Positions 19,159-42,998 of a stretch of 44,666 nt of DNA are shown in pieces. The translations under genes and the position numbers were made by a program. The DNA lies in the NCBI GenBank assembly GCA_963840855.1, contig CAWJBB010000060.1, positions 1 through 44,666 of the forward strand, in the 5' to 3' direction. The stretch comes from an uncultured delta proteobacterium. GTDB lineage: Bacteria > Desulfobacterota > Binatia > UBA9968. Within the stretch, counting starts at the first letter, position 1; each line of letters begins with the position of its first letter. The notes under the pieces are model-generated. The model was not told where the DNA came from, made no database searches, and saw nothing but the letters and a program-made list of their open reading frames with translations.

Positions 19159-22100
19159 ATGAAAAAGCATATTTTGACACCAGTGATTTTTGCGATCGCG
19201 TTTATCTGCGGGGGGGCGGTATCGAATTGCATTGCGCAGCCAGAGCCCAGTCCAAACATTGCGCCGGACTCCGGTGTATCGGAGCCACGGGAAAAGCTGC
19301 CAGAACCGACGGCGCCATCGCCGTTGGTACCCGGCCAGGTTCAATCTCCCGCACCCCGATTCCCGGTGCCGTCTGTCCAACAACAGCTACAACAGCCTGC
19401 TCCGGGTGGCGAGGCGCCGCCGCCCTCGGTATCTCCCCCTCAAGTTTCGCCGACACCTGTAGCGCCCGAACGTAGGCTTTTACCTACACCTGCAGCTCCG
19501 GCGCCATCCGGCGGCATGATATCGCTTAATTTTACCCGCGCCGATTTGGTCGAGATCATTCACATTATCGCGCAACATCTGCGGCTGACCTACACCATCG
19601 ACCCGGAGGTGAAGGGCACGGTAACCATCAATAGCGCCGAGCCTCTCAAATCGGAAGATCTGCTACCGATCTTTCACCAGGTGCTGCGCATGAACGGCGC
19701 CGTGGCGGTGCGGTCGGGCAACCTCTACCGTATAGTTCCGATAAAGGACGGCAAGAGTATCGCCCGCCCGGCGGGACAGGGCCGCGAAGACAGTTTTGCA
19801 TTGCAGATCGTGCCGGTGCGTTACTTCACCGCGGCGGAGATGAAGCGTCTGCTGACGCCGTTCCTGATGGCCGGCGGCGAGATCGTCGAGAACCCGCGCG
19901 GCAACTTTCTCATCATCATCGATTTGCCATCGAACATCCAACGGCTCGTGGAGATCGCCGAGCTGGTCGACGTGCAGGTCTTCGCCGGCACGCGTATGGA
20001 GATTTACCAGCCCAAAGTGGCGAGCGCGGAAGAGCTGGCACAAGAGATGATCAAGATCATGCAGTCCTTTTCCGCATCGACGCCGCAAACCGACAGCTTC
20101 AACGCGCAGTTTATAGCGCTGCCGCGCATCAACCAGCTGCTGGTTATTAGCCACAGCGAAGCGGCGTGGACCTATGCCAAACGCTGGATCGACCGCATCG
20201 ACGTTGTCGCCGAAGGACCAGGGCGAAGAATATTTATTTATCCGGTGGAAAACAGCAAGGCTGCGGATTTAGCCGACGTGTTGGGCCAGGCGCTTGGCCT
20301 ACCGACGTCAACGGCGCGCGCGGCGGCCCCGTCTCTGCAGACTTTGCACCGTTCAACTGCAGGGGGAGGCAGCGGGACGGGCCCGGGGATGGGTAGAACA
20401 ACGTCGCCGACGGGCGGAGGTGGATTTGGCGGAGGTGGATTTGGCGGAGCAAGTCCTACCGGTGGCGCCCCATACAGCGGATTCGCTGCTGTCCCCGCGC
20501 CTGGGCAACCTGCGCCTCAAGGATTACCCGCGCCAACTCCCGTACCCGTACCCGCGCCTGGGCAGCCGAGGCCGGGCACGCCGACGACGCCCGCAGCGCC
20601 GGGAGCGAAACCTGAAGAACAACTGCGCGTCGTCGCCGATCCTGGAACCAATTCGCTGATTGTTTACGGTACGGCGCAGGAATTTCAAAACATAAAAAAC
20701 ATTCTTAAAGAACTGGACGCGGTGCCGCGCCAGGTGCTGATGGACGTGCTGATCGCCGAGGTGCAATTGAATAACGATGAGAGGTTCGGCGTTGACTACG
20801 AAATCGCGCAGGGGGCCGTCACTTTTTTTGGCCGGACCTTCGGTCAACGTGGTTCGGTACTGACGGGTATTCTATCGAGCATTGTGGCACCAGGGACCGG
20901 CGAGGTGTTCTCCCGGTTTCCGCAGGGTATCACCGGCATTATTGGCAATAGCCAAACTGTGCGGGCTTTGATTAACGCGCTGCAATCGGATTCGCGAATC
21001 CGCATCCTGTCGTCTCCCAGTGTTCTTGCCAGCGACAACCGCCCGGCGCGCATTCAGGTTGGCAGCGAGGAACCGATCGCGACGGGGCAAGTGATCGCCG
21101 CGACGGGCGCTGTCAATCCGTCTTCGAGCACCACCATTCAATATCGCAACACCGGGCGAATCGTAACCATCGTCCCGCAGGTAAACTCACAGGGGCTGGT
21201 GAACCTGCAGATCCTCGCTGAAGTCAGCCAGCGCGGCGCCAACGTGACCGTCGGCACCGATTCCTTTCCGGCTTTCGATATTCGCCAGGCGGAAACCACG
21301 GCGGTGGTGCAGAACGGTGATACCCTGGTTATCGGCGGGATCATTGCTGATAACCGTTCCCACGACCGGACCGGCATTCCTTATCTCATGGACATCCCGG
21401 TTTTTGGGCGGTTTTTTGGCACGACCACCGAGCTAACTCGCAGGACCGAGTTGATCATGTTGATCACGCCCAATGTCATTCGCAACCGGGAGGAGTCTCG
21501 GGCTACAACAGAAGAATTCAAAAACAAAGTCTTAGGTATACGCAATGAACTTGAACGCTTGAGGAGGGATCACGAGCGAGAGTTGGAAAGGCTCAAGAAA
21601 CTCGCGCCGGTGGAGCCCAAAGACGCAGAGCCCGACCAGCCCAACGCGACAACTCCATCGCCGGGAGCCTCGACACCTGGGCAGCAAGCTCCGGCTCGAC
21701 AGTCGAGTTCCACGCCAGGACGTGGTGCATCGTCTTCGGCGCCGGTAGTAAGAAGCTCGGATGCATCCGAGACGATTCAATCAGCGCCGCTGCGGGACCC
21801 CATTGAGTTCAGGCTCCAACGAAAGCTGGAAGCGCCGCCGGCGGCACCTGCGCTGAGCGCGGCAACGACTGAAAGCGAGGAATTGCCGCCAGCCATGCCG
21901 AGTAATCTTGAGGAGAGCAGGATCGCTTCATTGCAAAACCCAGGATTTGCAAACCTGGCGAAATCAGGGGCGACTGAAGCACAGAAGCCGCGCGCCTCGG
22001 CGTCGGCGCAAGTGTGGGTGATTCAGATCGCATCCTTTGCCAGGGAAGCGGATGCGCGCGCTCTTGCCGCCAAGCTGAAAGAAAAAGGCTACAATGTGAA

Positions 22101-22275
22101 CGTCCTGTCCAGCGAGGTCGTGGGCCAGCCTCGATACCGGGTCGAAGTCGGCCCGCTGGCGAACCGGAGCGACGCGCAAGCCATGCAGAAAGAGTTGGCG
22201 ACTGTCCACAAACTCGAAGAAGCCTTCGTCCTGACCCGCGGGACTAATCCCAGCTCGAGCGCCCAACCGCGCTGA
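19159..22275 (+). CDS. gspD: Type II secretion secretin GspD with C-terminal SPOR domain (1038 aa)
   Basis: Signal peptide and Pro-rich linker; N0 (ISLNF..ADL...IDPEVKGTVT); N1-N3; core (RQVLMDVLIAEV, GIPYLMDIPVFG.FF, RTELIMLITP). Then a linker and WVIQIASF...KGY...YRVEVGPL (SPOR). Confidence 0.93.
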   Translation: MKKHILTPVIFAIAFICGGAVSNCIAQPEPSPNIAPDSGVSEPREKLPEPTAPSPLVPGQVQSPAPRFPVPSVQQQLQQPAPGGEAPPPSVSPPQVSPTPVAPERRLLPTPAAPAPSGGMISLNFTRADLVEIIHIIAQHLRLTYTIDPEVKGTVTINSAEPLKSEDLLPIFHQVLRMNGAVAVRSGNLYRIVPIKDGKSIARPAGQGREDSFALQIVPVRYFTAAEMKRLLTPFLMAGGEIVENPRGNFLIIIDLPSNIQRLVEIAELVDVQVFAGTRMEIYQPKVASAEELAQEMIKIMQSFSASTPQTDSFNAQFIALPRINQLLVISHSEAAWTYAKRWIDRIDVVAEGPGRRIFIYPVENSKAADLADVLGQALGLPTSTARAAAPSLQTLHRSTAGGGSGTGPGMGRTTSPTGGGGFGGGGFGGASPTGGAPYSGFAAVPAPGQPAPQGLPAPTPVPVPAPGQPRPGTPTTPAAPGAKPEEQLRVVADPGTNSLIVYGTAQEFQNIKNILKELDAVPRQVLMDVLIAEVQLNNDERFGVDYEIAQGAVTFFGRTFGQRGSVLTGILSSIVAPGTGEVFSRFPQGITGIIGNSQTVRALINALQSDSRIRILSSPSVLASDNRPARIQVGSEEPIATGQVIAATGAVNPSSSTTIQYRNTGRIVTIVPQVNSQGLVNLQILAEVSQRGANVTVGTDSFPAFDIRQAETTAVVQNGDTLVIGGIIADNRSHDRTGIPYLMDIPVFGRFFGTTTELTRRTELIMLITPNVIRNREESRATTEEFKNKVLGIRNELERLRRDHERELERLKKLAPVEPKDAEPDQPNATTPSPGASTPGQQAPARQSSSTPGRGASSSAPVVRSSDASETIQSAPLRDPIEFRLQRKLEAPPAAPALSAATTESEELPPAMPSNLEESRIASLQNPGFANLAKSGATEAQKPRASASAQVWVIQIASFAREADARALAAKLKEKGYNVNVLSSEVVGQPRYRVEVGPLANRSDAQAMQKELATVHKLEEAFVLTRGTNPSSSAQPR

Positions 22276-22473
22276 CCCCCCGCTGCGTTGGCTTCGATTC
22301 CAGCGCTGCCCGTTCTTCCGTCCTCCCAATACCCTTCTGATTTTCTCTTTAGCGATGGCATCCTTGCGCTGTACTACTTATTGTCGCGATCTCCTTTACC
22401 CTGAAGCTAGGGCATGCCGGCGGTTTTCATAACACCCAGGCCTCTGTTATGATTCAAAGGTTGGACTTACAGC

Positions 22474-22649
22474 ATGGCTGGGCGCATAAACGAATTGAAA
22501 GCTCTGATCCGCGGCGCAGCCAGCGACATTGATCCGCGTCTGGAAAGGGGCTATTGTTACGAAATTTCCGACAGAGCCAGAGCATCGGCGGCGGCGTCCT
22601 GGAAGCGATCCTCGGCGCATCTGTTGATTTGAAGTTGCCGAGCGACTAA
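22474..22649 (+). pseudogene. yqeB: Internally deleted, frameshifted remnant of a YqeB-family gene (selenium-dependent molybdenum hydroxylase system)
   Basis: MAGRINELKALIRGAA (YqeB-like N-terminus) joined directly to DIDPRLERGYCYEISDRAR, then after a frameshift SIGGGVLEAILG (YqeB C-terminus). Not in the ORF track. Confidence 0.7.
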
Positions 22650-22673
22650 TAGCTTTCTAAGCACGAAATCAAA

Positions 22674-23609
22674 ATGGACGAGGCGAGCGTGAACCCAAAA
22701 GAGCTTACGATTGAACGCGTGCAGGAGATTCTCAGAAGCCAACAATATGTCTGCGACCGGTCGTTGGCGACGGTGGTTTACCTTTCGTTGGTAATGGGCA
22801 AACCGCTGCTGCTCGAAGGCGAAGCCGGGGTCGGCAAGACCGAGATTGCCAAAGTGCTTTCCAAGGTTTTGGACGCCAAGCTGATCCGTCTGCAGTGCTA
22901 CGAAGGATTGGACGCCAACACGGCGCTTTACGAGTGGAACTATCCCAAGCAGATGTTGCGCATCAAGCTTGAGGAGGTTGAAAAGGGCGACAGGCAAACC
23001 GTGGAATCCGAGATCTTCACCCAGGAGTATCTGACCAAACGGCCGCTCCTGGAAGCGATTCAAAGCGACGGCGCCAATCCGCCGGTGCTGCTCATCGACG
23101 AGATCGACCGCGCCGATGTGGAATTTGAGGCGTTTTTGCTGGAGGTGTTGTCGGATTTCCAGATCACCATTCCGGAAATCGGCACGATTCAGGCGAAGCA
23201 CCGCCCCTATGTCTTTCTCACTTCGAACCGCACGCGGGAAATTCACGACGCGCTCAAGCGCCGCTGCCTGTACCACTGGATCGAATATCCGACCTTTGAA
23301 AAGGAATACGAAATCATCACCACCAAGTTCCCGCAGGTGGAAGGGAACATGGCCAAACAGATCTGCGCCTTCATGCAGCGGGTGCGCGAGATGAATTTTT
23401 ACAAGCGGCCCGGTGTGGCGGAAACGCTGGATTGGGTGTCGGCCCTAGTCGCTCTCAACCGCCGAAGCCTGGATGACAAAGCGGTGGTGGAGACCATGGG
23501 CTGCGTGTTCAAATACCGTGAAGATCTGCATCATTTGCGCGAGCAGGTGGAAGGCAAACAGCTCAATCTGGACGCGCTGCTCAGAGTGTCGCCGGAACTG
23601 GTGAGTTAG
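22674..23609 (+). CDS. coxD: MoxR-family AAA+ ATPase, CoxD-like
   Basis: LLLEGEAGVGKT, RLQCYEGLD, YEWNY, LLIDEIDR, LTSNRTRE.HDALKRRC, PGVAETLDW. Confidence 0.9.
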   Translation: MDEASVNPKELTIERVQEILRSQQYVCDRSLATVVYLSLVMGKPLLLEGEAGVGKTEIAKVLSKVLDAKLIRLQCYEGLDANTALYEWNYPKQMLRIKLEEVEKGDRQTVESEIFTQEYLTKRPLLEAIQSDGANPPVLLIDEIDRADVEFEAFLLEVLSDFQITIPEIGTIQAKHRPYVFLTSNRTREIHDALKRRCLYHWIEYPTFEKEYEIITTKFPQVEGNMAKQICAFMQRVREMNFYKRPGVAETLDWVSALVALNRRSLDDKAVVETMGCVFKYREDLHHLREQVEGKQLNLDALLRVSPELVS

Positions 23610-23613
23610 CGAG

Positions 23614-24828
23614 ATGGACATTACGCCGGAAGCCGTCGCCAGCGCCGTAACCAGCGTCGCCTCGGTGCGTGGCCGGGGCACGCTGCCGAACTTGATGGCG
23701 TTTGCGCGCGTGCTAAAAACGCTTGGGATCAAGATCGGTTTGAGCCAGGTGATCGACACGGCGCGCGCTACCGATATGGTGGAGATCAGCGCCAGGACGG
23801 ATTTTCGCGCGCTGTTGCGCGCCAATCTGATCTCGCAAAAAGAAGATTTTCCGGCATTCGATATAGCCTTCGATTGCTTCTGGCGCGAGCAGGCTTACGA
23901 GCGGGTGCCGATGGAGACCATGGATATCGAAGGGACACCGACGGAATCCAACGCTCAGGAAGGCGGCGACGAAGAAGGCGGCATCGAAGAAGCCATCGCC
24001 GAGACCCTGGCGAAGGAAAACGTCGCTTTGGAAAACCTCGACGAATTTGCCATTCCCACCTACAGCGCCCAGGAACAGCTCAACCGCAAAGACTTCAGCG
24101 AGATGGGCGTGGATGAAAGCCGCGCCATCGCCCGCGCCATCCTGCTCATCGCCACCAAAATCGCCACCCAGATCAGCCGGCGCAAAAAGGTCAGCCGCAG
24201 AGGCGCGCTGGTCGACCCGCGCTGGACCATGCGCAAGAACATGAAATACGGCGGCGAAATCATCGATCTGGTGCAGCGCAAAAAACGCATCAAAAAAACC
24301 AAGGTCGTGCTGCTGTGCGACGTCAGCGGCTCCATGGATTGCTACAGCCGCTTTTTGATCCAGTTTATGTACGGGCTGCAAAACGAGTTGTGGGGCGTCG
24401 AGACCTTCGTCTTCAGCACCTCGCTCAGCCGCATCACCCATCTCATTCGCACCAAGGATATCGCCAACGCCCTGGAAAAAATCTCGGGCAGCATCCTCGG
24501 CTGGTCCGGCGGCACCAACATCGGGCGCTCACTCCATACCTTCAACCGCAGCTTCGCGCCGAGCATGGTGACCCATCGCACGGTGATCGTGGTCATCAGC
24601 GACGGCTGGGACCGCGGCGACGTTAGCCTGCTCGAACGCGAGATGCAGGACTTGAAGCGCCGCTGCAAGAAACTAATCTGGCTCAATCCGCTCTTGGCGA
24701 GCGAGAACTACGAGCCGCTCTGCAAAGGCATGCAGGCCGCGCTGCCGTACATCGATTTGTTTTTATCCGTGCATAATCTCAATAGTCTCATCGCCCTCGG
24801 GCGGACGCTGCAAAAAATGGTGGCATGA
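23614..24828 (+). CDS. coxE: VWA-domain protein, CoxE-like
   Basis: LCDVSGSM (MIDAS), F.FST.L..IT, WSGGTNIG, ISDGWD, IWLNPL. Confidence 0.9.
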   Translation: MDITPEAVASAVTSVASVRGRGTLPNLMAFARVLKTLGIKIGLSQVIDTARATDMVEISARTDFRALLRANLISQKEDFPAFDIAFDCFWREQAYERVPMETMDIEGTPTESNAQEGGDEEGGIEEAIAETLAKENVALENLDEFAIPTYSAQEQLNRKDFSEMGVDESRAIARAILLIATKIATQISRRKKVSRRGALVDPRWTMRKNMKYGGEIIDLVQRKKRIKKTKVVLLCDVSGSMDCYSRFLIQFMYGLQNELWGVETFVFSTSLSRITHLIRTKDIANALEKISGSILGWSGGTNIGRSLHTFNRSFAPSMVTHRTVIVVISDGWDRGDVSLLEREMQDLKRRCKKLIWLNPLLASENYEPLCKGMQAALPYIDLFLSVHNLNSLIALGRTLQKMVA

Positions 24829-24840
24829 TGGCGCACCAGA

Positions 24841-24905
24841 CTGGAGCGTTGGAGTATCGGAGGACTGGAATATTGGGTCTCGAACCCATCAGTCCAGTAT
24901 TCCAA
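24841..24905. repeat. Inverted octamer repeat element
   Basis: CTGGAGCG TTGGAGTA TCGGAGGA CTGGAATA TTGGG ... CCCATC AGTCCAG TATTCCAA. Confidence 0.7.
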
Positions 24906-24987
24906 TTGCTATGAGTCCACCGGTACAATAAACCGGTAAGTCTTTTTCAGGACGCTGCTTCAAACGCAACACAAGGAGGCAATTATC

Positions 24988-25383
24988 ATGGCAGGACCTG
25001 GAGCATGTTACGAACCAAGCGAGGCGGAAGGCAAGAAAAAAGATTCCATTTACCATCAGGTGAGAGAATTCCTCGACAAAGGCGAGACCCTGGCGGTGGC
25101 GACCATCGTGTCGACCAAGGGATCGACGCCGCGGGAAGTCGGCGCCAAAATGGTCGTTACGGCCTGGGGTGAAATCCTCGGCACCATCGGCGGCGGCTGC
25201 GGCGAAGCGGACGTGAAACGCGAGGCCATCGATGTGATCCGCACGCGCAAGCCGCGCACGGTGCGGATCGATCTGCTCGACGATATCTCCTCGGACAGCC
25301 CCGCGGTTTGCGGCGGCGTCATGAATGTATTCATCGACCCGTGGTGGCAGGAGCGCGACCGGGAGGCCGCGGCTGGCAAATGA
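24988..25383 (+). CDS. XdhC/CoxI-family N-terminal domain protein
   Basis: ATIV...GSTPR..GAKM, GTIGGGCGE, CGG.M.VFIDP. RBS AAGGAGG. Confidence 0.9.
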   Translation: MAGPGACYEPSEAEGKKKDSIYHQVREFLDKGETLAVATIVSTKGSTPREVGAKMVVTAWGEILGTIGGGCGEADVKREAIDVIRTRKPRTVRIDLLDDISSDSPAVCGGVMNVFIDPWWQERDREAAAGK

Positions 25384-26153
25384 GCTCGCTGTCCGAAGAG
25401 CTCGTGGAAATTTCCGAGCGGGGCGCAGCCGCGGTGCTCGCGACGGTGGTCGAAGTCGAGGGCAGCGTGGGTGTGGAGCCCGGCGCCAAATGCTTGATAC
25501 GCGACGGCAAGCTGAGCGCCGACACCATCGGCAATGCGCGCGTGACCGACGCCATCGTCAAAGAAAGCGACGCGCGCTTGCGCGCGGAAAAGTCGCAACT
25601 AGTCTCCCTCGATGTGCCCGCGGCGGGCGGCAGGCTCGAAGTATTTTTTGAAGTCATGCCGGCGCCGCCGAAGCTCATCGTGGTGGGCGCCGGCCATATC
25701 GCCGTGCCGCTGGTGCAGATCGCCAAGGTTTTGGATTTTTTCGTGACCGTCATCGACGACCGGTTGCTGTACGCCAACCGCGAGCGTTTCCCGGCCGCCG
25801 ACGAAGTGGTGGTAGGCGACATGGCGCAGACGCTCAAGGAAATGAATATCACGCCTTCCTGCTATATCGTGCTGATCACCCGCGGCCACGCCTACGACGA
25901 GCCCTGTCTCCGCGTAATTATGCATAGTCAGGCGAAATACATCGGCATGATCGGCAGCAAGCGGCGCATTAAGGCCTGCTTCCAGCGCTTCCGCGACGAG
26001 GAAAAGATCGCCGAGGAAGTAATCGAGCGGGTCTATGCTCCGATCGGGCTCGACATCGCGACTGAAACTCCGGCGGAAATTGCGCTGTCGATCTTGGGCG
26101 AAGTGATCAAAGTCAGGCGCGGCGGCAAGGCGGCGTCGCTGTCGGGCCACTGA
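25380..26153 (+). CDS. xdhC: XdhC/CoxF-family Moco-insertion chaperone (degenerate N domain + Rossmann domain)
   Basis: LIVVGAGHIA, V.VIDDR, TRGH..D, YIGMIGS.RR, PIGLDI..ETPAEIA.SI. ATGA overlap. Confidence 0.88.
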   Translation: MSSLSEELVEISERGAAAVLATVVEVEGSVGVEPGAKCLIRDGKLSADTIGNARVTDAIVKESDARLRAEKSQLVSLDVPAAGGRLEVFFEVMPAPPKLIVVGAGHIAVPLVQIAKVLDFFVTVIDDRLLYANRERFPAADEVVVGDMAQTLKEMNITPSCYIVLITRGHAYDEPCLRVIMHSQAKYIGMIGSKRRIKACFQRFRDEEKIAEEVIERVYAPIGLDIATETPAEIALSILGEVIKVRRGGKAASLSGH

Positions 26154-26164
26154 ACGGAATTGAC

Positions 26165-26587
26165 GTGAGCGCGCCGCGAATCATTAACGGGATCATTTTT
26201 TCGGACCTGGGCCAGGCAGCGAAATTTATGGCGCTGGATTGGGTGCGGCAAGCCTTGGCGGAGAGTTTGGGTTTCGCACCGTTTCCGGCAACGCTCAACG
26301 TCCGTCCCGCCAATCCAGGAGATGCCTTGACTTGGCAGTCGATCCAGAATGATGCACGTTTTTTTTCCCATATGCCGTCCCATGAAGGCTGTTGTCGCGC
26401 GCGCATTTACCGGATTGAAGTTAAAAGTGGCATGGATGGCAGCAGCCGCGGGACGCCGGCAGCGGTGCTCTTCCCGGAAGTGAATGATTATCCCAAAGAC
26501 AAAATCGAAATCGTCGCGCCCATGCGGCTGAAGGATGCCTTCGATGTCAAGGACGGCGATCGACTCACGTTGGAGTTTATCCATTGA
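26165..26587 (+). CDS. ribK: Archaeal-type CTP-dependent riboflavin kinase (DUF120 family)
   Basis: G.IFSDLGQA (cf. G.V.SGLGEG), LGF.PFPATLNV (cf. LGF.PYPGTLN), IEIVAP..LKD.F..KDGD (cf. EIIAP..LR....L.DGD). Confidence 0.82.
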   Translation: MSAPRIINGIIFSDLGQAAKFMALDWVRQALAESLGFAPFPATLNVRPANPGDALTWQSIQNDARFFSHMPSHEGCCRARIYRIEVKSGMDGSSRGTPAAVLFPEVNDYPKDKIEIVAPMRLKDAFDVKDGDRLTLEFIH

Positions 26588-27237
26588 ACAGCAGGCGCAG
26601 ACTCATTGTTGGCATCTCCGGGGCGACGGGCGCGATCTATGGCGTGCGCATGCTCGAGGTGTTGGCGAAGATTGAAGACATGGAGACCCACCTCGTCTTG
26701 AGCAAAGCCGGCAAGATGACGATCCAGGTGGAGACGCCGTACTCCGTCAAAGAGGTGGAAGCGCTGGCGGATGTGGTCCACGACATCAATAACGTCGGCG
26801 CGAGCATTTCCAGCGGCTCTTTTCGCACCGAAGGCATGGTGATCGCGCCCTGCTCGATGAAGTCCATGGGCAGCATCGCGCATTCCATCGGCGGTGATCT
26901 CCTGGTCCGTGCCGCCGACGTGGTGCTCAAGGAAAGAAAAAAGTTGGTGTTGGTGGCGCGGGAAACACCGCTCCATTTGGGCCATCTGGAGGCGATGGCG
27001 ACGCTCACGCGCATGGGCGCGGTGATCTTTCCACCGGTGCCGGCGTTTTACCATCGCCCCAAAACGCTCGATGACGTCATCAATCAAACCGTAACGCGCA
27101 TTCTCGATCAGTTCGACATCGACGTCAGCCTGTTCCATCGCTGGGACGATGAGGGCATGAGCCGCCACCCCGACGCGAAAAAACCCACGCCCATCGCTGC
27201 GGCGAAGGAACGCCGCGCGGTGAAAAAGCCTCGGTAA
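26584..27237 (+). CDS. ubiX: Flavin prenyltransferase UbiX
   Basis: GISGATGAIYG, A.ISSGS, APCSMK, RAADV.LKER, RETPL, PP.PAFYH.P, C-terminal RW. TTG overlaps the ribK stop. Confidence 0.95.
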   Translation: MNSRRRLIVGISGATGAIYGVRMLEVLAKIEDMETHLVLSKAGKMTIQVETPYSVKEVEALADVVHDINNVGASISSGSFRTEGMVIAPCSMKSMGSIAHSIGGDLLVRAADVVLKERKKLVLVARETPLHLGHLEAMATLTRMGAVIFPPVPAFYHRPKTLDDVINQTVTRILDQFDIDVSLFHRWDDEGMSRHPDAKKPTPIAAAKERRAVKKPR

Positions 27238-27255
27238 GAATCTCACGCCAGTACG

Positions 27256-28302
27256 ATGCAACGCCGCGGAGTCAGTAAAAAACTCAGCAAAACCCAAAAA
27301 CGGAAAAAAGAACATCTCGACATCTGTCTTGATACCGAGGCAGTCACGGGACCGTTGGGGACGGGACTGGACCGTTACCGGTTTGTTCATAACGCGCTGC
27401 CGGAGCTCGATCTTGACGAAATCGACCTGGGCGTCACGTTTCTCGGCCGACGGCTCGAGGCGCCCATCTTGATTTCTTCAATGACCGGCGGCTTCGATCT
27501 GGCGCGCAAGATCAACCGCAATCTGGCCGCCGCCGCTGAGCGCTTGGGGCTAGCGATGGGCGTGGGCTCGCAGCGCGTCGCCCTCGAAGAGCCTTCCGTC
27601 GCCGCCTCATTTCAGGTGCGCGACGTCGCGCCGAATATACTGCTCTTCGGTAATCTCGGCGCCGTGCAGCTAAACTACGGCTACACTATCGAGCACTGCC
27701 GGCGGGCGGTGGAGATGATCGGCGCCGATGGATTGATCCTGCACCTCAATGTTCTGCAAGAAGCCGCTCAGCCGGAGGGCAACCGCAACTTCAGAGGCTT
27801 GACGGCGCAAATCGCGGCAGTCTGCCGGCAAGCAGAGTTCCCTGTGATCGTGAAAGAGATCGGCAGCGGCATTTCCGCTGATGCAGCCATTCGATTGCGC
27901 GACGCCGGCGTTCGCGCCATCGATGTCGCCGGGCGCGGCGGCACTTCATGGTATACGGTGGAAGCCCGGCGCGCGGCGAGCCCGGGGCAAGAAGCGAAGT
28001 CGACCTTTTCAGCCTGGGGTATTCCCACCGATGAAGCGCTCGTCCAGGTGCGCCGGGCTATCCCCGATTTACCGCTGGTTGCCTCAGGGGGCATCCGCAG
28101 CGGGTTGGATATGGCCAAGTGTATGGCCCTGGGCGCGGACCTCGCCGCGCTCGGCCAACCGCTTCTGGCATCGGCTTTGGAGTCCGCCGATAAGGTGGTA
28201 GAATTTCTCTCTGGGATCATCCATGAAATTAAAATTGCCATGCTATGTGCCGGCGCGCCTGATCTGGCCGCGCTGAAAAAGACTCCGCTGATGCGGGAAT
28301 AG
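27256..28302 (+). CDS. fni: Type 2 isopentenyl-diphosphate isomerase (IDI-2)
   Basis: RK.EH, HNALPE, ISSMTGG, MGVGSQR, NLGAVQ, HLN.LQE..QPEG, VKE.G.G, DVAG.GGTSW, SGGIR.G.D. Confidence 0.95.
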   Translation: MQRRGVSKKLSKTQKRKKEHLDICLDTEAVTGPLGTGLDRYRFVHNALPELDLDEIDLGVTFLGRRLEAPILISSMTGGFDLARKINRNLAAAAERLGLAMGVGSQRVALEEPSVAASFQVRDVAPNILLFGNLGAVQLNYGYTIEHCRRAVEMIGADGLILHLNVLQEAAQPEGNRNFRGLTAQIAAVCRQAEFPVIVKEIGSGISADAAIRLRDAGVRAIDVAGRGGTSWYTVEARRAASPGQEAKSTFSAWGIPTDEALVQVRRAIPDLPLVASGGIRSGLDMAKCMALGADLAALGQPLLASALESADKVVEFLSGIIHEIKIAMLCAGAPDLAALKKTPLMRE

Positions 28303-28310
28303 ACGTAATG

Positions 28311-28368
28311 GCTTCGAGCGACGGGTTTCGGGTTTCACATCGAAACTGCAAACTCGCAACGCGAAACT
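28311..28368. repeat. Inverted heptamer repeat element (GTTTCGG / CGAAAC type)
   Basis: GCTTCGA GCGACGG GTTTCGG GTTTC ... GAAAC TGCAAAC TCGCAAC GCGAAAC. Confidence 0.65.
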
Positions 28369-28379
28369 AGCATGAAATA

Positions 28380-28847
28380 ATGGCGGAAGAACTGAAGCGG
28401 CAGATTCTCCAATATATCGAAGCTCATAACACGATGACGCTGGCGACTTGCGCCGACAACCTGCCGTGGGCGGCGACCGTGTTTTACGCCAGCGACGATC
28501 TCGGCCTCTATTTCTTTTCCGCGCCGGATTCGCGTCATTGTCAAAACCTCGCGGCCAACGCGAGGGTTGCGGTGACGATACAGGAAGACTATAAGGATTG
28601 GCGCCAGATCAAAGGGGTGCAGCTGGAGGGAAAAGTAACGCTGGTGGATTCGGTGCTCGAAAAGGCCAAGGCATTGGCGGTTTACGCGCGCAAGTACCCC
28701 GCCGTGATCAAGCTATTCACCGACCCGTCAAGCGGCGTGTTCCATAAAGCGTTTCTCAAGGTGAAATTTTATCGGGTGACTCCGGAAAGGGTCTTTTTTA
28801 TCGATAATGCGCAAGGCTTTGGCAAACGGCAGGAGCTGGTTTTATAA
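28380..28847 (+). CDS. PNPOx-like FMN-binding split-barrel protein (YhbP/UPF0306-like)
   Basis: TMTLAT....PWAA.VFYA, F.S...SRH..NL..N..VA.TI, W..IKGVQL.G, IDN..GFG.R. Confidence 0.85.
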   Translation: MAEELKRQILQYIEAHNTMTLATCADNLPWAATVFYASDDLGLYFFSAPDSRHCQNLAANARVAVTIQEDYKDWRQIKGVQLEGKVTLVDSVLEKAKALAVYARKYPAVIKLFTDPSSGVFHKAFLKVKFYRVTPERVFFIDNAQGFGKRQELVL

Positions 28848-28903
28848 AAGTAAGGCGAATCGGCCGATTATAACGTCTAATGGGTTATAAATAGGATGCA
28901 TTC

Positions 28904-29380
28904 ATGTCGCAGATTCTAGGCAAAGAACTCACCGACGCCTTGTTGAAACGCTTGAGCGGCGTTGCGGTCGCTTCCCACGAAGGGAAAATCATTCCAGTAT
29001 TTACCTTGGATGAGGCTGGTTGGCCGCACCCGGCGTTGTTGTCCTACTATGAAGTCGTGGCGAAAAACGCCTCGACCCTCGAGATGGCGATCTGGAAAGA
29101 TAGCTCCACCGCGAACAACCTGCGGCGCATGGGAAAGATCAGCCTGATGATCGCCGACAATGGCGTCAATTTTTATATTAAAGGCGCCGTCAAGGAGTTG
29201 GAGAAGGAGATGACCGGCGCGCCGCCGGTTTCGCGCTTTCAAATAACGGTCGAACAGCTCCTGGAAGACCAGGAGCCCAACGCGCAGATCACCAGCGGCA
29301 TGACTTACACACGGGGGAAGGAACGCGATTCCAACGATTTTTCGGCAAAAGTCCTGCGTATCCTGCGCGAGCTATCATAA
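28904..29380 (+). CDS. PNPOx-like split-barrel protein resembling PhdC/YclD prenylated-FMN maturases
   Basis: EL...L...LSG, T.DE.GWPH.ALLS..EVVA, AIW..S.T..NL.R.GK. Resemblance is recalled from ubiD/ubiX-associated YclD-like proteins, not searched. Confidence 0.65.
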   Translation: MSQILGKELTDALLKRLSGVAVASHEGKIIPVFTLDEAGWPHPALLSYYEVVAKNASTLEMAIWKDSSTANNLRRMGKISLMIADNGVNFYIKGAVKELEKEMTGAPPVSRFQITVEQLLEDQEPNAQITSGMTYTRGKERDSNDFSAKVLRILRELS

Positions 29381-30687
29381 TGCGGAAACGGATTTTTATA
29401 ACCCTGGTATTGCTGCTTGCGATCGTCGGCTCGGGATACAGCTATTGGCGCTGGAATAATGGGCCAAAGGAGCCGCCCTACGTGACCACGCCGGCGCAGC
29501 GGGGCAATATCACTCAGGTTGTGTCATCCACGGGTACCTTGCAAGCGGTGGTCACGGTTCAAGTCGGCAGCCAGGTTTCGGGCACCATCGAAAAGCTCTT
29601 TGCCAACTTCAATTCCAAGGTAAAGTCCGGCCAAGTCGTCGCCGAATTGAATCAGGACAAGTTCAAGGCCGCCGTGGATCAGGCGCGAGCCAATCAGATC
29701 GCGGCACAGTCGACGTTGGCGAAATCCAAGGTCAGCGTGGAGGACGCGCGGCGCACCCTCGAGCGAGCCCGCGAGCTGAAAAAGCGCGACCTGATGGCTC
29801 AGAGCGAGTTGGATGCGGCGCAAACCGCCTATGATGCCGCGCTGGCGCAGTTGGACGTCAACAAGGCCCAGGTAGCGCAGGCCCAGGCGGCGATCAATCA
29901 AGTGACGGTCGATCTCAACAACACCGTCATTCGATCGCCGGTTGACGGCATCGTCATCTCGCGCAATGTGGACGTCGGCCAGACCGTTGCGGCTTCGCTG
30001 TCGGCTCCTACTTTATTCACCATTGCCAACGATCTCGCAAAGATGGAAGTCCACACCAACGTCGATGAGGCGGATGTGGGAAATGTTTGGGAAGGGCAAG
30101 AGGTCACGTTCACCGTCGATGCCTTTCCGGCACGGCGTTTCAGGGGCAAGGTCTATCAGGTGCGTAACGCGCCGATCAACGTGCAAGGGGTCATCACCTA
30201 TAACGCGGTGGCGCGCATCGATAACAAAGATTTGCTCTTAAAACCCGGCATGACCGCCAACGTGCGATTCCTGGTCAGCCAAAAAGAAAACGTCGTAGTC
30301 ATTCCCAATATGGCCATGCGCTTTAGGCCACCCGACCAGAAGGACGAGGCCCAAGAACTCCTGCGCCAGGAAAGAAGCCGCACAGCGAAGCCGGTCGGAA
30401 CGCGCCGAACGAGCCGCGCCGCCGGCGCCGGCGGTGGAGGGGGCGGTGTGCAGGGAAATCGGCGCGTGACAATTTACCTTCTCAAGGACGATAAACCTCA
30501 GCCTGTTGAGGTTCAGCTCGGCATCACCGACGGAACAAGGTCGGAAGTGCTCGGCGAGGTGGTCAATGAGAACGATCCGGTCGTGATCGGGATGTCGAGT
30601 GCCGCGGCGTCCGCCGGGCAACCCGGCGTCGCCAACCCATTCCAGCCGCAGCAGCCTCGCGGGCCGGGTTTCGGCGGCTTCCGATGA
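29380..30687 (+). CDS. Periplasmic adaptor (membrane fusion) subunit, MacA-like
   Basis: VQVGSQVSG, IRSPVDG.V, VGQTVAAS, VDEADVG, L.PGMTANV. TAATG overlap with the upstream stop. Confidence 0.92.
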   Translation: MRKRIFITLVLLLAIVGSGYSYWRWNNGPKEPPYVTTPAQRGNITQVVSSTGTLQAVVTVQVGSQVSGTIEKLFANFNSKVKSGQVVAELNQDKFKAAVDQARANQIAAQSTLAKSKVSVEDARRTLERARELKKRDLMAQSELDAAQTAYDAALAQLDVNKAQVAQAQAAINQVTVDLNNTVIRSPVDGIVISRNVDVGQTVAASLSAPTLFTIANDLAKMEVHTNVDEADVGNVWEGQEVTFTVDAFPARRFRGKVYQVRNAPINVQGVITYNAVARIDNKDLLLKPGMTANVRFLVSQKENVVVIPNMAMRFRPPDQKDEAQELLRQERSRTAKPVGTRRTSRAAGAGGGGGGVQGNRRVTIYLLKDDKPQPVEVQLGITDGTRSEVLGEVVNENDPVVIGMSSAAASAGQPGVANPFQPQQPRGPGFGGFR

Positions 30688-31397
30688 GCGAGCTCATTCG
30701 CGTTGAGGATCTTCACAAGACCTACCGCATGGGCGACGTCGAAGTGCCAGCTCTTCGCGGTGTCAATCTGACGATCGAACATGGCGAATTCGTCGCCGTC
30801 ATGGGTTCTTCCGGCTCCGGCAAATCGACCTTAATGAATATCTTGGGTTGCTTGGATCGCCCAACCACCGGCCGGTATTTTCTCGAGACCCAAGAAGTGG
30901 GCGCACTGTCGCGCGACCAATGGGCGCATATTCGCAACAAACGCATCGGGTTCGTTTTTCAAGGCTTCAACCTGCTCTCGCGTACCAGCGCGCTGGAAAA
31001 TGTCGAGCTGCCCATGATGTACAACGGCTTCGCCGGCAAGGAGCGTCACAATCGCGCCGTGGAAGTCTTGTCTCTCGTCGGACTCGAGCAGCGTCTCGAT
31101 CACAAACCCAATCAGCTCTCCGGCGGACAGCAGCAAAGAGTCGCCATTGCTCGTGCTTTGGTCAACAAGCCGTCGTTGGTTCTCGCGGACGAGCCGACTG
31201 GCAATCTCGATTCGGCCACCAGCCACGACATCATGATGCTCCTCCAGCAACTCAACGCCGAGCAAAAAATCACCATCGTCCTGGTCACCCACGAGCAAGA
31301 CATCGCGGCTTACGCCCAGCGCCGCGTATTGTTTAGAGACGGCGAAATTGTTTCGGACGATAAGACCGGCCAGGAGCGAGAAAGTTTCAAACGTTAA
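30684..31397 (+). CDS. ABC transporter ATP-binding subunit (MacB/LolD type)
   Basis: [43 protein letters not shown]. Confidence 0.95.
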
Positions 31398-31407
31398 AAC
31401 AATGGCA

Positions 31408-31510
31408 GGATTCGGGATTTTGACATCGGGGTGAGATTGCGTAATGAGATCAAGCCGAGGGTCTCGGTCGCGCGAGTAGTCCAAAATCGGCAATCCAAAA
31501 TCCAAAATTG
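31408..31510. repeat. Inverted heptamer repeat element (CCAAAAT type)
   Basis: GGATTCG GGATTTTG ... TCCAAAA TCGGCAA TCCAAAA TCCAAAA TTG. Same unit as the element at 11023..11170. Confidence 0.75.
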
Positions 31511-31513
31511 ATT

Positions 31514-32728
31514 ATGTGGATAATGACGTTAAGAATTGCGCTTAAGGCGTTGGCACGAAACAAAATGCGCGCCTTTCTGACGATGCTCGGTATCATTATC
31601 GGCGTCGGCGCGGTGATCGCCATGGTCGCCATCGGTGAGGGTGCGAAGTCGACGATCCGCGCGCAAATCGCCAGTCTCGGCACCAACGTTCTCATCATAA
31701 TGCCGGGCACGTCGAATCAAGGCGGCGTTCGCGCCGGTTTTGGCAGTGTCAACACGCTAGTGGACGGCGATGCCAGGGCGATGATACACGAAGTTCGGGC
31801 CGTCGCTTATGCGTCGCCGGTCTTGCGCCGACCGGAGCAATTGGTTGCGGGCAATCTTAACTGGGGCACCCTTGCCCAGGGAGTGGCGCCGGAGTTTCAA
31901 CAGATTCGCGAGTGGCAGATCGCCGAAGGTCGGTTCTTGCACGACGGCGACATGGAAAGCGCGGCAAAGGTGGTGGTGCTGGGAGAGACCGTCGTGCGCA
32001 ATCTATTCGGCAACGACGATCCCATCGACGCGGTGATCCGTATTCGCAACATTCCCTTTCGCGTCGTTGGCGTGCTCGCGCCCAAAGGCCAGACCGGTCA
32101 AGGGACGGATCAAGACGATACGGTGATGATTCCTTACACGACGATGCAGAAACGGCTCATGCGCATCACCTGGCTGCAAAGTATTGTGGTCAAGGCCATC
32201 AACGCGGAACGCGTGCAAGAGGCGCAGGAACAAATCACCTCGCTCTTGCGCCAGCGCCACCGCATCGGTCCGGAGCGGGAGGACGATTTCAACGTGCGCA
32301 ATCTGTCCGATATCACCGAGGCGGCGACGACCAGCGCCCGGGTGATGACCGTGCTTTTGGGCAGCGTCGCTGGGATTTCACTGTTAGTAGGCGGTATCGG
32401 CATCATGAATATCATGCTCGTGTCGGTCACCGAACGGACGCGCGAGATCGGCATCCGCATGGCCGTCGGCGCGCGCAGCCGCGATATCATGCTGCAATTT
32501 CTCGTTGAGGCGGTCGTCATGGCCGCCACCGGCGGGATCATCGGAATTTTTTTGGGGATCGGCAGCTCTGAAGTTCTCAAAACATGGGCGCAGTGGCCGA
32601 CGCTAATCGATCCTGCCATCGTCGCCATCGCTTTTCTCTTCTCCGGTGCCGTCGGAGTCTTCTTCGGCTTTTATCCCGCCAAAAAAGCCGCGACCCTGGA
32701 TCCCATAGAAGCGCTGCGTTACGAATAA
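31514..32728 (+). CDS. ABC transporter permease, MacB-like
   Basis: LTMLGIIIGV, VGGIGIMNIMLVSVTERTREIGIR, FGFYPA..AA.LDPIEALRYE. Confidence 0.95.
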   Translation: MWIMTLRIALKALARNKMRAFLTMLGIIIGVGAVIAMVAIGEGAKSTIRAQIASLGTNVLIIMPGTSNQGGVRAGFGSVNTLVDGDARAMIHEVRAVAYASPVLRRPEQLVAGNLNWGTLAQGVAPEFQQIREWQIAEGRFLHDGDMESAAKVVVLGETVVRNLFGNDDPIDAVIRIRNIPFRVVGVLAPKGQTGQGTDQDDTVMIPYTTMQKRLMRITWLQSIVVKAINAERVQEAQEQITSLLRQRHRIGPEREDDFNVRNLSDITEAATTSARVMTVLLGSVAGISLLVGGIGIMNIMLVSVTERTREIGIRMAVGARSRDIMLQFLVEAVVMAATGGIIGIFLGIGSSEVLKTWAQWPTLIDPAIVAIAFLFSGAVGVFFGFYPAKKAATLDPIEALRYE

Positions 32729-32800
32729 AATTTTGTCACGCTCCATAGGGCGCGAAGCGCGCAGTCTATTTAGCCCGGATTCCTTTAACGCCGTTAGCAG

Positions 32801-33836
32801 AGCTCGTTTGCCGTGCCTTGAGCCCTTCCGATAGCAGCGGCGCTACTCTGCCTGTCGTCGGCGAGGCGATAATATCCACCCTTTCGTAGGTCGCGCGCAG
32901 TGCCTCGCGAATGCGGTGTCGCGCGCGCTGGACGGTGAGGTACTCAGAGGCGGTGATGGTCATGCCCACTGCCAGGCCCCGGCTCACGTGCGCAACGAAG
33001 TCTTGGTGCCGCTCGCGAAACCAGCGACGGTTGATCCCAGCGCTCTCGGCGGAGCTGGTCATCATCGAGGTCATCGCCGCGTAGGTTACTTCGGGAACGT
33101 CTAACTCGACTATATCAGCATCTTGCACTAGCAAGGACTTTGAGCTGCTGCGTCGAACGCTTGTCTTACTGCAGGGTCCACTCCCTGCAGAAATCGACTG
33201 AGCACTCCGACTCTAAGCCCTTTCACGCTGGCATCGAGCCGGGATGCGTAAGCGGTATTTCTTGGCGTACGCTGGCCGGGTCCCGCGCGTCGAAGCCGGC
33301 GACAGCGTCCAGCCCGAGCGCGATATCTGGCACTGAACGCGCGAAGAGCCCGACATGATCTTGACTCCAGGCGCCGCGGAACGACCCGTGCCGGCTGATG
33401 ATACCGAAGGTAGGTTTGAAGCCGGACGATGCCACAATAGGATGCCGGGCGGCGCACCGATGACCCAGTTTCGGTGCCGTAGGAGAGCGGGCCAATGCCC
33501 GCGGCGACGGCAACTGCTGACCCACCGCTCGAGCCGCCCGCGATGCGTTCGATATCCCACGGGTTGTGGACCGGGCCGAAGTGGGAAAGTGTCGATGTGC
33601 CGCCATGGCCAAATTCATCCAGATTGGTCTTTCCTATGATGACCGCTCCGGCCGCGCGCAACTTTTCCACTAGGTCTGCATCCGTCTCAGGGACCCAATC
33701 TGCCAAAATCTTTGAACCCCCTGTCGTGCGCACCCCGGCCGTCTCAAACATGTCTTTGATCGTGACAGGTACGCCGTGGAGAGCGCCACGATAATTTCCG
33801 CGAGCAATTTCTTCATCGGCTTTAGCTCGTTTGCCG
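32801..33836. repeat. 13-bp direct repeat AGCTCGTTTGCCG bounding the amidase fragment
   Basis: Exact copies at 32801-32813 and 33824-33836. Confidence 0.8.
32814..33823 (-). pseudogene. Amidase-signature family pseudogene, truncated at both ends, with at least 3 frameshifts
   Basis: GALHGVPVTIKDM, GKTNLDEF, GGSSGGS, GTETGSSVRRPA / GFKPTFG...DHVG / KGLRVG / Y...QR.R...SPT are spread across frames. Shifts near 33425, 33255 and 33135. Confidence 0.88.
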
Positions 33837-40119: not shown

Positions 40120-41322
40120 CTAATTCATCCGTTCGACGACCGTGGCGATGCCTTGGCCGACACCGATGCACATGGTGGCGAGGCCGAAGCGGCTGCCGCG
40201 TTTTTTCATTTCGTGAATAAGCGTCGTCACGATCCGGGCGCCGCTGCAGCCGAGCGGGTGGCCGAGGGCGATGGCGCCGCCGTTGACGTTGAGCTTGTTG
40301 AGATCGATGCCTAACTCGCGCGCGCACGCGAGCACCTGGGAAGCAAAGGCTTCGTTGATTTCCACGAGGTCGATCTGCTCGATGGTGAGGCCGGCACGTT
40401 TGAGCGCTTTTTGCGCCGCCGGTATCGGGCCGATTCCCATGTAGTTTGGATGGACACCGGCGGCGGCCGACGCCACGATGCGCGCCAAGGGTTTGAGTCT
40501 CAATTGCTCCGCTTTTTGCGGCGTTGTGATCAGCAATGCTGCGGCGCCGTCGGAAAGCGGTGACGAATTTCCAGCGGTCACCGTGCCGCCTTTCTTGAAC
40601 GCGGGTTGCAACCCCGCGAGGATCTCCAATGTCGTATCCGTTCTCGGCCCCTCGTCCTTGTCAAGGACGAGGGGCGCGCCTTTTCGCTGCGCCATCTCAA
40701 AGGGTACGATTTCGTCCTTCAGGCGGCCTTCCTGCTGCGCCTTCACGGCATTTCGATGGCTGGCCAGCGCCAGCGCGTCTTGGTCCGCGCGGCTGACGTT
40801 GTATTTCTCGGCGACGTTTTCAGCGGTCTCGCCGTTGTTAATCAGCGAGTACAGCTCGCCCATGCGCTTGTTGGGAAAACGCCACCCCAGCGAACTGTCA
40901 TACAGCTGTACATCGCCGCGCTGAAAGGCGTTGGCCGGTTTGCCCATTACCCAGGGCCCACGGGTCATGCTTTCGACGCCGCCGGCAACATAAACCTCGC
41001 CGTTATCTGTGGCGATCGAGTGAGCCGCTTGATTGATCGCTTCCATGCCCGAGCCGCATAGACGATTCAACGTGGCGCCGGGAATCGTATAGGGCAGGCC
41101 GGCCAGCAACGAGGCGTTGCGCGCGACGTTACGCGAATCTTCGCCCGCCTGATTGGTGCAGCCGAAGTAGACATCTTCGATTTCTTCCTTGGCGATGCCG
41201 GTTTTTTCGACCATCTTGGCGATGATGTAAGCGGCTAGATCGTCGGTGCGGACGTCTTTCAGAATGCCGCCGTGGCGGCCCATGGGCGTGCGCACGGCTT
41301 CAACGATAACGGCTTCTTTCAT
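40120..41322 (-). CDS. paaJ: Thiolase, PaaJ/PcaF-like (3-oxoadipyl-CoA thiolase type)
   Basis: NQAGED.RNVAR, RLCGSG, GGVESM, LGWRFPN, NEAF, GHPLG.SG, MCIGVGQG. Confidence 0.85.
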   Translation of the reverse strand: MKEAVIVEAVRTPMGRHGGILKDVRTDDLAAYIIAKMVEKTGIAKEEIEDVYFGCTNQAGEDSRNVARNASLLAGLPYTIPGATLNRLCGSGMEAINQAAHSIATDNGEVYVAGGVESMTRGPWVMGKPANAFQRGDVQLYDSSLGWRFPNKRMGELYSLINNGETAENVAEKYNVSRADQDALALASHRNAVKAQQEGRLKDEIVPFEMAQRKGAPLVLDKDEGPRTDTTLEILAGLQPAFKKGGTVTAGNSSPLSDGAAALLITTPQKAEQLRLKPLARIVASAAAGVHPNYMGIGPIPAAQKALKRAGLTIEQIDLVEINEAFASQVLACARELGIDLNKLNVNGGAIALGHPLGCSGARIVTTLIHEMKKRGSRFGLATMCIGVGQGIATVVERMN

Positions 41323-42918: not shown

Positions 42919-42931
42919 AATACTAAATCGC

Positions 42932-42997
42932 AGTCTCGAGTCCAGAGTTTCAGTGTCTAGAGTTGAAACCCAAAACGCTGGACTCTGAACGCTAGAA
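42932..42997. repeat. Degenerate inverted heptamer repeat element
   Basis: GTCTCGA GTCCAGA GTTTCAG TGTCTAGA GTT ... AAC CCAAAAC GCTGGAC TCTGAAC GCTAGAA. Confidence 0.6.
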
Positions 42998-42998
42998 A

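Follow-up and report, generated by a model that had tools for sequence, protein, structure and literature searches.

A conserved nine-gene block of an uncultured Binatia bacterium, probably a joint maturation unit for the molybdenum cofactor and prenylated FMN

The DNA analysed here is a stretch of 44,666 nucleotides (nt), contig CAWJBB010000060.1 of assembly GCA_963840855.1 from an uncultured delta proteobacterium (Desulfobacterota; Binatia; UBA9968), and the whole stretch is called the window below. It carries nine co-oriented genes at 22674-29380, which probably (we would say roughly 65%) form one conserved maturation block for two cofactors, the molybdenum cofactor (Moco) and prenylated flavin mononucleotide (prFMN), serving in trans client enzymes encoded elsewhere. 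An earlier reading from the letters alone (the sequence-only reading) had proposed a prFMN cassette of five genes at 26165-29380. These five genes are real, but the conserved unit as a whole has nine genes and begins at 22674. The same reading saw in the cassette a central cofactor factory for UbiD decarboxylases encoded elsewhere; copy numbers, gene order and the link to the maturase PhdC speak for this idea, but it missed the Moco half, and the type 2 isopentenyl-diphosphate isomerase (IDI-2) turned out to be optional.

The genes of the block are as follows, with the scores of the profiles that assign them:

22674..23609, + strand: MoxR-type AAA+ ATPase (CoxD-like), first gene of the block; Pfam AAA_5, 46 bits
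23614..24828, + strand: CoxE-like VWA protein; Pfam VWA_CoxE, 212 bits
24988..25383, + strand: XdhC N-domain-only protein (XdhC-N); Pfam XdhC_CoxI, 88.5 bits
25380..26153, + strand: XdhC-family cofactor-insertion chaperone; XdhC_C (Rossmann), 142 bits, and XdhC_CoxI, 46 bits
26165..26587, + strand: DUF120 protein, homologue of CTP-dependent riboflavin kinase, 140 aa; Pfam PF01982, 76 bits (cut-off 25)
26584..27237, + strand: UbiX flavin prenyltransferase, 217 aa; NF004685, 278.5 bits (family cut-off 188), and TIGR00421, 241.9 bits (108.9)
27256..28302, + strand: IDI-2, 348 aa; TIGR02151, 408.6 bits (equivalog cut-off 281.3), profile positions 1-335 of 338
28380..28847, + strand: PNPOx-like FMN-binding split barrel, 155 aa; Pfam PF01243 (PNPOx_N), 69 bits (cut-off 28.1)
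28904..29380, + strand: distant PhdC/YclD-like split barrel, candidate prFMN maturase, 158 aa; matches PhdC by sequence, profile and fold

The ORF (open reading frame) list and the profile searches both contain the five co-oriented ORFs at 26165-29380 as they had been described, and the described spacing is also correct: the DUF120 and UbiX genes overlap by 4 nt, and 18 nt lie between UbiX and IDI-2. For XdhC the start was taken as the ATG at 25380, where ATGA overlaps the stop of XdhC-N by 4 nt. The eight gaps along the nine genes are, in order, 4, 159, -4, 11, -4, 18, 77 and 56 nt, which suggests an operon-like arrangement. In the Pfam search of the window the MoxR, VWA_CoxE and XdhC domains occur together as a CoxD/CoxE/CoxF-type set. 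The more specific NCBIfam equivalogs of this half stayed under their cut-offs (MadB 275.8 against 475 bits for the MoxR protein, MadC 68.4 against 600, XdhC_rel_AOR 209.3 against 350).

The arrangement was compared in 41 genomes of the order, which fall into three families; the counts include the window's own genome (G000) and two unpublished genomes (G009, G015), on which alone no claim depends, and they are search matches, not copy numbers, from related genomes that are not independent. A DUF120 homologue was present in 39 of the 41 genomes. UbiX lay directly beside DUF120, as the next gene, in all 30 short loci (one of them the window itself), and XdhC was the gene before DUF120 in 28 of these, the remaining two ending at contig edges. 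The long loci showed the order MoxR, VWA, XdhC-N, XdhC, DUF120, UbiX, [IDI-2], PNPOx-like, PhdC-like. The complete block from MoxR to the PhdC-like gene was found in 15 of 16 long loci, and the remaining one ends at a contig edge. MoxR heads the block (73-96% identity) and the CoxE-like VWA gene is kept in all 16, and XdhC-N is 75-91% identical across the order. The genes flanking the block differ between families, and the junction of the two halves is kept in 16/16. It means that the arrangement of the window is not chance, because both the DUF120-UbiX adjacency and the block recur across the order; conservation of gene order, which the sequence-only reading had named as a check on its cassette, was found at both scales (30/30 short and 16/16 long loci). 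IDI-2 belongs to the block in eight of the 16 long loci, and the other eight, all of family f3, are without it. Among four aligned proteins, the mean column identity was 79% for the PNPOx-like barrel, 75% for UbiX, 65% for the PhdC-like barrel and 60% for DUF120, so the PNPOx-like barrel is the best conserved of these; it is 69-86% identical across the order.

The numbers of candidate client genes in the order are large. UbiD gave 15 to at least 58 matches per genome and the molybdenum subunit of the xanthine-oxidase family (PF02738) gave 10-50, both in all 41 genomes, and exactly one UbiX exceeded its cut-off in 39 of them. In the other orders of this class, five genomes had 0, 0, 0, 0 and 1 UbiD matches, and DUF120 was found in none of 12. 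A DUF120 search of named genome contigs returned a single locus (L094), with 91% identity, in a metagenome-assembled genome of a Candidatus Binatia bacterium, and the members of the Atlas cluster of the PNPOx-like barrel come most often from Candidatus Binatota.

The genome to which the window belongs has 7.1 Mb in 93 contigs. UbiX, DUF120 and IDI-2 each gave one match over cut-off there, and tblastn found one copy each of XdhC-N, XdhC, DUF120, UbiX, the PNPOx-like and the PhdC-like gene. There is a second MoxR/VWA pair (C46:136977-139228), 47% and 32% identical to that of the window; about 100 kb away on the same contig lie two molybdenum-subunit genes and one UbiD gene. The 34 UbiD matches all exceed the cut-off and none has an internal stop; this number against a single UbiX is what would be expected if many clients depended on one cassette. 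None of the 34 is on the contig of the window (C60), in agreement with the earlier statement that the window has no ubiD. The 34 sequences are divergent, with a median pairwise identity of 30% and a nearest paralogue at 63% or less for 30 of them. We also identified 41 PF02738 matches, 35 of them at E <= 1e-40, and Pfam found no molybdenum enzyme in the window. Two minus-strand ORFs (34526-36685 and 37170-39347) had been suspected as such enzymes, and by Pfam they encode RNase R and an AsmA/YhdP-like protein. Since the block holds the only UbiX and the only XdhC of the genome, it is likely to serve its clients in trans.

The two kinds of candidate clients are themselves encoded together. Of the 34 UbiD genes, 11 have a PF02738 gene at a distance of 10 kb or less and 19 have one within 20 kb; when placement was randomised 2000 times, the 10-kb count averaged 3.0 and never exceeded 10. 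Three such clusters of the same genome were inspected (L095-L097; C65:34687-38367, C40:29964-36699 and C55:37648-42671). One has a CoxL-type subunit followed by UbiD 27 nt on, another has homologues of CoxS, CoxL and CoxM after a UbiD fusion of 916 aa, and another has CoxL, a solute-binding protein and UbiD. The first approximately 496 residues of the 916-aa protein have no Pfam match, and genes for luciferase-like monooxygenases, glyoxalase-type proteins and solute-binding proteins stand beside the UbiD/molybdenum clusters. These clusters fit the idea that XdhC clients and UbiX clients are partners in catabolic operons. Because UbiD and molybdenum-subunit genes are co-encoded, one block maturing both cofactors is plausible, and this would explain why its two halves are retained together.

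The following scheme may be proposed for the block. The 5' half (MoxR, VWA, XdhC-N, XdhC), being of CoxD/E/F type, would mature Moco and insert it into xanthine-oxidase-family enzymes. The DUF120 kinase would convert riboflavin to extra FMN independently of RibF, and IDI-2, where present, would raise the pool of dimethylallyl diphosphate (DMAPP). UbiX would then prenylate reduced FMN to prFMNH2, and the PhdC-like barrel would carry out the oxidative maturation of prFMN. The PNPOx-like barrel would bind flavin species and might act as a carrier, a reductase or the first oxidant. The recipients, encoded elsewhere, would be the UbiD (de)carboxylases, some 34 divergent proteins, together with some 35 molybdenum hydroxylases.

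The PhdC-like assignment of the fifth protein of the proposed cassette is borne out by profile and by fold, as a distant homology. Pfam gave it only DUF447_N/PNPOx_N at about 22 bits, under cut-off, and its best NCBIfam match was PRK06733 (E 1.2e-5). PhdC entries were its sole sequence matches in the PDB, with E 0.0023 for the single sequence and 9.3e-7 for a profile of 16 orthologues. The AlphaFold2 (AF2) model, with a predicted local distance difference test (pLDDT) score of 84, has the split-barrel fold with a C-terminal helix. In the Foldseek search with this model, rank 1 was 2q9k (Exiguobacterium) and ranks 2-10 were PhdC (9nk0-4, 9o5m, 9srg, 9srj), with template modelling (TM) scores of 0.67-0.77 and E 5e-9 to 3e-8, so that the PhdC structures rank above generic PNPOx-like proteins. 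We presume, as a guess only, that PRK06733 or 2q9k are relatives of YclD. E50 of the protein corresponds to Glu47 of PhdC in the alignment, and all 16 orthologues have it; the Glu aligned with it is Ala in the mutant chain 9nk3 (E45A in the numbering of the entry title). A further invariant group, E121-D122-Q123, closes the last strand, ahead of the loop that leads into the C-terminal helix. From sequence and model, the protein would thus be a distant PhdC-like barrel that has one of the defining residues, Glu47, and a candidate maturase. The background used by the sequence-only reading on UbiX substrates and on activation by PhdC and YclD is in agreement with the available text of PMC13040415, where the UbiX substrates are dimethylallyl (pyro)phosphate and FMNH2, and the prFMN maturase PhdC is described as a split barrel in which Glu47, Glu136 and an ExW motif are conserved. 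According to the same text, PhdC and YclD activate UbiD, Priestia megaterium YclD activates E. coli UbiD, and YclD is likewise without the Trp of ExW.

The PNPOx-like barrel is of a generic type. Its AF2 model (pLDDT 90) matched Rv2991, Mll6688 and HugZ-like proteins in Foldseek with TM 0.6-0.74, and no PhdC was among the matches. The YhbP equivalog stayed under its cut-off (61.7 against 176 bits).

The DUF120 protein matches the archaeal kinase MJ0056 (2p3m) at E 7e-10 over residues 5-134 and keeps the motifs TLN, IE(I/V)xAP and DGD. Around TLN, where the family motif is P-x-x-G-T-L-N, the window reads PFPATLN and most relatives read PYPGTLN. The genome encodes RibF too (contig C27), therefore DUF120 is putatively an extra kinase. 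RibF makes FAD as well, and so FMN for prenylation could come from a kinase that has no second activity. The call of riboflavin kinase made by the sequence-only reading accordingly stands for the family (PF01982) but not at the level of equivalog scores, and a RibF is already present. A predicted complex of UbiX with DUF120 scored 0.00 and 0.00, which is no verdict for or against binding.

Across the phylum, 42 of the 401 genomes sampled have DUF120. Among 20 DUF120 loci from other families, UbiX lay within the fetched stretch in nine; in four of these nine it directly adjoins DUF120, in the opposite order (UbiX then DUF120). IDI-2 adjoins DUF120 in three of the 20. Four of these genomes, with 4-5 UbiD matches apiece, carry UbiD on the UbiX-DUF120 contig, 1-8 kb from DUF120. 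A homologue of either barrel was found in 0/20 of these distant loci (tblastn, E <= 1e-4), and a profile search gave a weak PhdC-like match just upstream of the gene for a DUF120-HAD fusion in G264. Genome G084 has UbiX-DUF120 beside UbiD matches, with no PF02738 match and no XdhC in the fetched stretch; here XdhC goes with the molybdenum enzymes and not with UbiD. Genome G377 has 26 UbiD and 12 molybdenum-subunit matches and two DUF120 copies.

Nine of ten long DUF120 frames from other families are fusions with a HAD_2 phosphatase domain, in both domain orders (L064, L065, L067, L069, L070, L079, L080, L081, L082); in L082 the fusion stands between UbiX and IDI-2. In the tenth long frame (L068, 410 aa), Pfam matches nothing in the N-terminal part. 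The HAD domain could be a phosphatase of the riboflavin pathway or for FMN, or could convert DMAPP to dimethylallyl phosphate (DMAP) and so make the UbiX substrate.

RNA-library contigs that are 90-100% like the block were found in four metatranscriptome runs of three studies. Those listed bridge the MoxR/VWA, VWA/XdhC-N, XdhC-N/XdhC, DUF120/UbiX and IDI-2/PNPOx-like junctions; the UbiX/IDI-2 junction is unspanned among them, and some bins are without cover. A contig over two genes is not the same as a single transcript, transcript ends are not visible in such data and DNA may be present, so these contigs give at best weak support for expression of the block. Signals in 22100-33000 were no commoner than in shuffled sequences, neither promoter-like (4 against 4.2 expected) nor terminator-like (16 against 14.0). 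In RNA contigs of related strains the VWA/XdhC-N spacer is 76 nt shorter (window 24896-24973) and the IDI-2/PNPOx-like spacer has a 7-nt deletion (window 28322); the spacers vary in related strains while the genes stay. About half of the sampled 31-mers of 22600-29400 were found in contigs of 14 DNA runs from eight studies, labelled soil, freshwater sediment, permafrost or just metagenome, which is a habitat lead only, and one of the runs may be the source of the window.

Several points weigh against a single dual-cofactor block and its proposed chemistry. The genome has a completeness of 94% and a contamination of 8%, its match numbers are not copy numbers, and two pairs of its UbiD sequences are 92% and 99% identical. 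The PhdC profile match of the fifth protein is limited to the N-terminal 87 residues and its sequence has no ExW motif, and the PNPOx-like barrel matches only generic PNPOx/HugZ-like barrels. DUF120 is under the NCBIfam equivalog cut-offs (PRK14165 52.8 against 279 bits, ribK_Meth NF040694 48.9 against 168), and its glycine-rich loop has diverged (SDLGQA against SGLGEG in MJ0056). The 159-nt gap between VWA and XdhC-N holds a terminator-like hairpin. IDI-2 was over cut-off in none of five near-complete f3 genomes, which have 26-34 UbiD matches. Since it is missing from the f3 block and genomes despite these matches, IDI-2 seems to be an optional DMAPP booster rather than a required step; its proposed part as DMAPP supplier may hold for the window, where it is present, but the gene is not needed in family f3. 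Finally, the conservation inside the one order may be inherited synteny, since related genomes are not independent. From this one may suppose two unrelated neighbouring operons, one for Moco and one for prFMN, which came down from the ancestor of the order with no functional coupling or co-regulation. All 41 genomes are of one order, where descent may account for the conservation, distant UbiX-DUF120 pairs are mostly without a nearby XdhC (seen in only one of the 20 loci, L074), and none of the listed RNA-library contigs bridges the XdhC/DUF120 junction. However, only 11 nt separate XdhC and DUF120 in the window, the flanks vary while the junction of the halves is constant in the long loci, the UbiD and molybdenum-subunit clients are themselves co-encoded, and the distant G377 repeats a MoxR-VWA-XdhC set 4.5 kb from DUF120-IDI-2. 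We consider separate operons unlikely, and prefer one block maturing both cofactors.

The 3' genes might also be housekeeping genes, with UbiX only for a quinone-pathway UbiD, IDI-2 for isoprenoids, and DUF120 with the barrels for general flavin metabolism; the many UbiD paralogues would then have no dedicated supply from the block. IDI-2 and riboflavin kinase do have general roles, and the sole UbiX must also serve any UbiD of the quinone pathway. We find such a role improbable, because RibF is already present and IspH, which in the methylerythritol phosphate (MEP) pathway yields DMAPP, was found in the genome (329.6 bits); moreover DUF120 is rare in the phylum, yet it stands near UbiX in nine of 20 distant loci and has UbiD 1-8 kb away on the same contig in four other genomes. 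The fifth gene is a PhdC homologue, and with one UbiX for 34 UbiD matches the UbiD paralogues have no other prenyltransferase. The sequence-only reading had itself offered an archaeal-type mevalonate pathway as the alternative setting for ubiX and fni, its anhydromevalonate phosphate decarboxylase being a member of the UbiD family. In its favour, IDI-2 is characteristic of organisms with a mevalonate pathway and UbiD homologues are abundant here, but HMG-CoA (3-hydroxy-3-methylglutaryl-CoA) reductase was not found in the 94%-complete genome. The suggested comparison of MEP with archaeal mevalonate genes therefore points to the MEP pathway, and as IDI-2 is also absent in f3, we give this alternative hardly any credence. 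A different use of the same nine genes is conceivable as a long shot, in which the MoxR-VWA-XdhC half was recruited to load prFMN with Mn2+/K+ into apo-UbiD; the block would then be an activation machine for holo-UbiD, with the PNPOx-like barrel as an oxygen-independent prFMN carrier or oxidant. The joint maturation of Moco and prFMN for clients in trans is still the explanation that we prefer. Gene content, copy numbers, conserved order, and the fold and family assignments were observed directly, and the enzymatic steps, the co-regulation of both halves and the service in trans are inferred from them.

Other genes of the window lie downstream of the block. At 29380-32728 on the + strand are ORFs for a MacA-like adaptor (by profile) and for an ABC ATPase and a permease (both by reading); the MacA start and the stop codon of the PhdC-like gene have one base in common, the last of that stop, and this neighbourhood is kept only in some genomes of family f1. 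MacAB was considered as part of the core and rejected, as, among the 15 long loci extending beyond the block, only three have it next (L056, L057, L059); it also follows in L099. On the minus strand, 32766-33751 has a 207-aa ORF homologous to amidase, which covers only profile positions 58-263 of 445, and a 122-aa ORF follows directly after it in another frame; it may be a split or frameshifted amidase gene. At 41322-43002, also on the minus strand, are two adjoining 3-hydroxyacyl-CoA dehydrogenase ORFs, of which the downstream one (247 aa) keeps only the last approximately 100 positions of the NAD-binding domain. They stand within a beta-oxidation-like set with a thiolase and two enoyl-CoA hydratases.

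The components of the block are already known singly: PhdC-type maturases, UbiX, IDI-2, DUF120 kinases and CoxD/E/F-like sets. The sequence-only reading knew no description of their arrangement, and in our literature search, with supplements and subscription journals outside it, no DUF120-UbiX(-IDI-2) module was described, nor such a module joined to a pair of split barrels and to genes for Moco maturation, nor a lineage with one UbiX per 15 to at least 58 UbiD, co-expanded with molybdenum hydroxylases. The separation of ubiX from ubiD, which had been counted as part of the novelty, is not new in itself, because ubiX of E. coli is unlinked from ubiD.

The block may be of practical value. Activation of UbiD in foreign hosts is a bottleneck, and the available texts of PMC13040415 and PMC10865409 tell of inactive radical-bound enzymes and of the search for maturases or chaperones. 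A lineage in which dozens of divergent UbiD enzymes would rely on a single UbiX offers a natural accessory set, putatively an extra FMN kinase, IDI-2, the PNPOx-like barrel and the PhdC-like barrel, which can be tested as a portable activation cassette. Candidate PhdC-like maturases would be extended beyond Actinomycetota and Bacillota, to which the cases in the available text of PMC13040415 belong; the PhdC-like sequences found there by BLAST were all from Actinomycetota. The recurrent link of DUF120 with UbiX gives a testable role for bacterial DUF120 proteins. The Moco link together with the CoxL-UbiD operons suggests a catabolism that pairs molybdenum hydroxylases with prFMN decarboxylases in an uncultured lineage.

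Compared with known systems, DUF120 of the window shares its Pfam family with archaeal RibK (MJ0056; 2p3m, 2vbu), but its host is a bacterium that has RibF, its loop has diverged and its scores are under the equivalog cut-offs. The 5' half resembles coxDEF of the CO dehydrogenase of Oligotropha carboxidovorans, a trio of MoxR AAA+, VWA and XdhC-like genes beside coxMSL, which the window matches by Pfam (VWA_CoxE, XdhC_CoxI). Unlike coxDEF, the set of the window has no molybdenum enzyme nearby, has XdhC-N as well as a full-length XdhC, and is joined to prFMN genes. YclD adjoins its decarboxylase genes, whereas the PhdC-like gene of the window has no client gene nearby; as far as the available description goes, YclD of Priestia megaterium (Bacillus yclBCD/bsd) is a distant PhdC-like accessory protein, like the fifth protein here.

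In the hmf cluster of Cupriavidus basilensis HMF14, HmfF is a UbiD, HmfG a UbiX and HmfABC a molybdenum furoyl-CoA dehydrogenase. This cluster pairs UbiD with a xanthine-oxidase-family molybdoenzyme, as the CoxL-UbiD operons do here; however, UbiX travels with its UbiD in hmf, while here one central block has the maturation genes and they are missing from the client operons. HmfF is also mentioned in the available text of PMC13040415. LpdD of Lactiplantibacillus plantarum LpdBCD carries prFMNH2 to UbiD according to the available text of PMC10865409, and is a possible functional analogue of the PNPOx-like barrel, but its fold is different and resembles a proteasome-assembly chaperone; no LpdD homologue was seen here, though no search was aimed at one. 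In phdABC of Mycolicibacterium fortuitum (PhdA is UbiD, PhdB is UbiX and PhdC is the maturase, by the available text of PMC13040415), UbiX and a PhdC-type barrel are encoded together as they are here. The block of the window differs from phdABC in having no UbiD, in a sequence identity of about 18% and the missing ExW motif, and in the added DUF120, IDI-2, PNPOx-like and Moco-maturation genes; and one UbiX stands here against about 34 UbiD matches, where phdABC has one UbiX for one UbiD.

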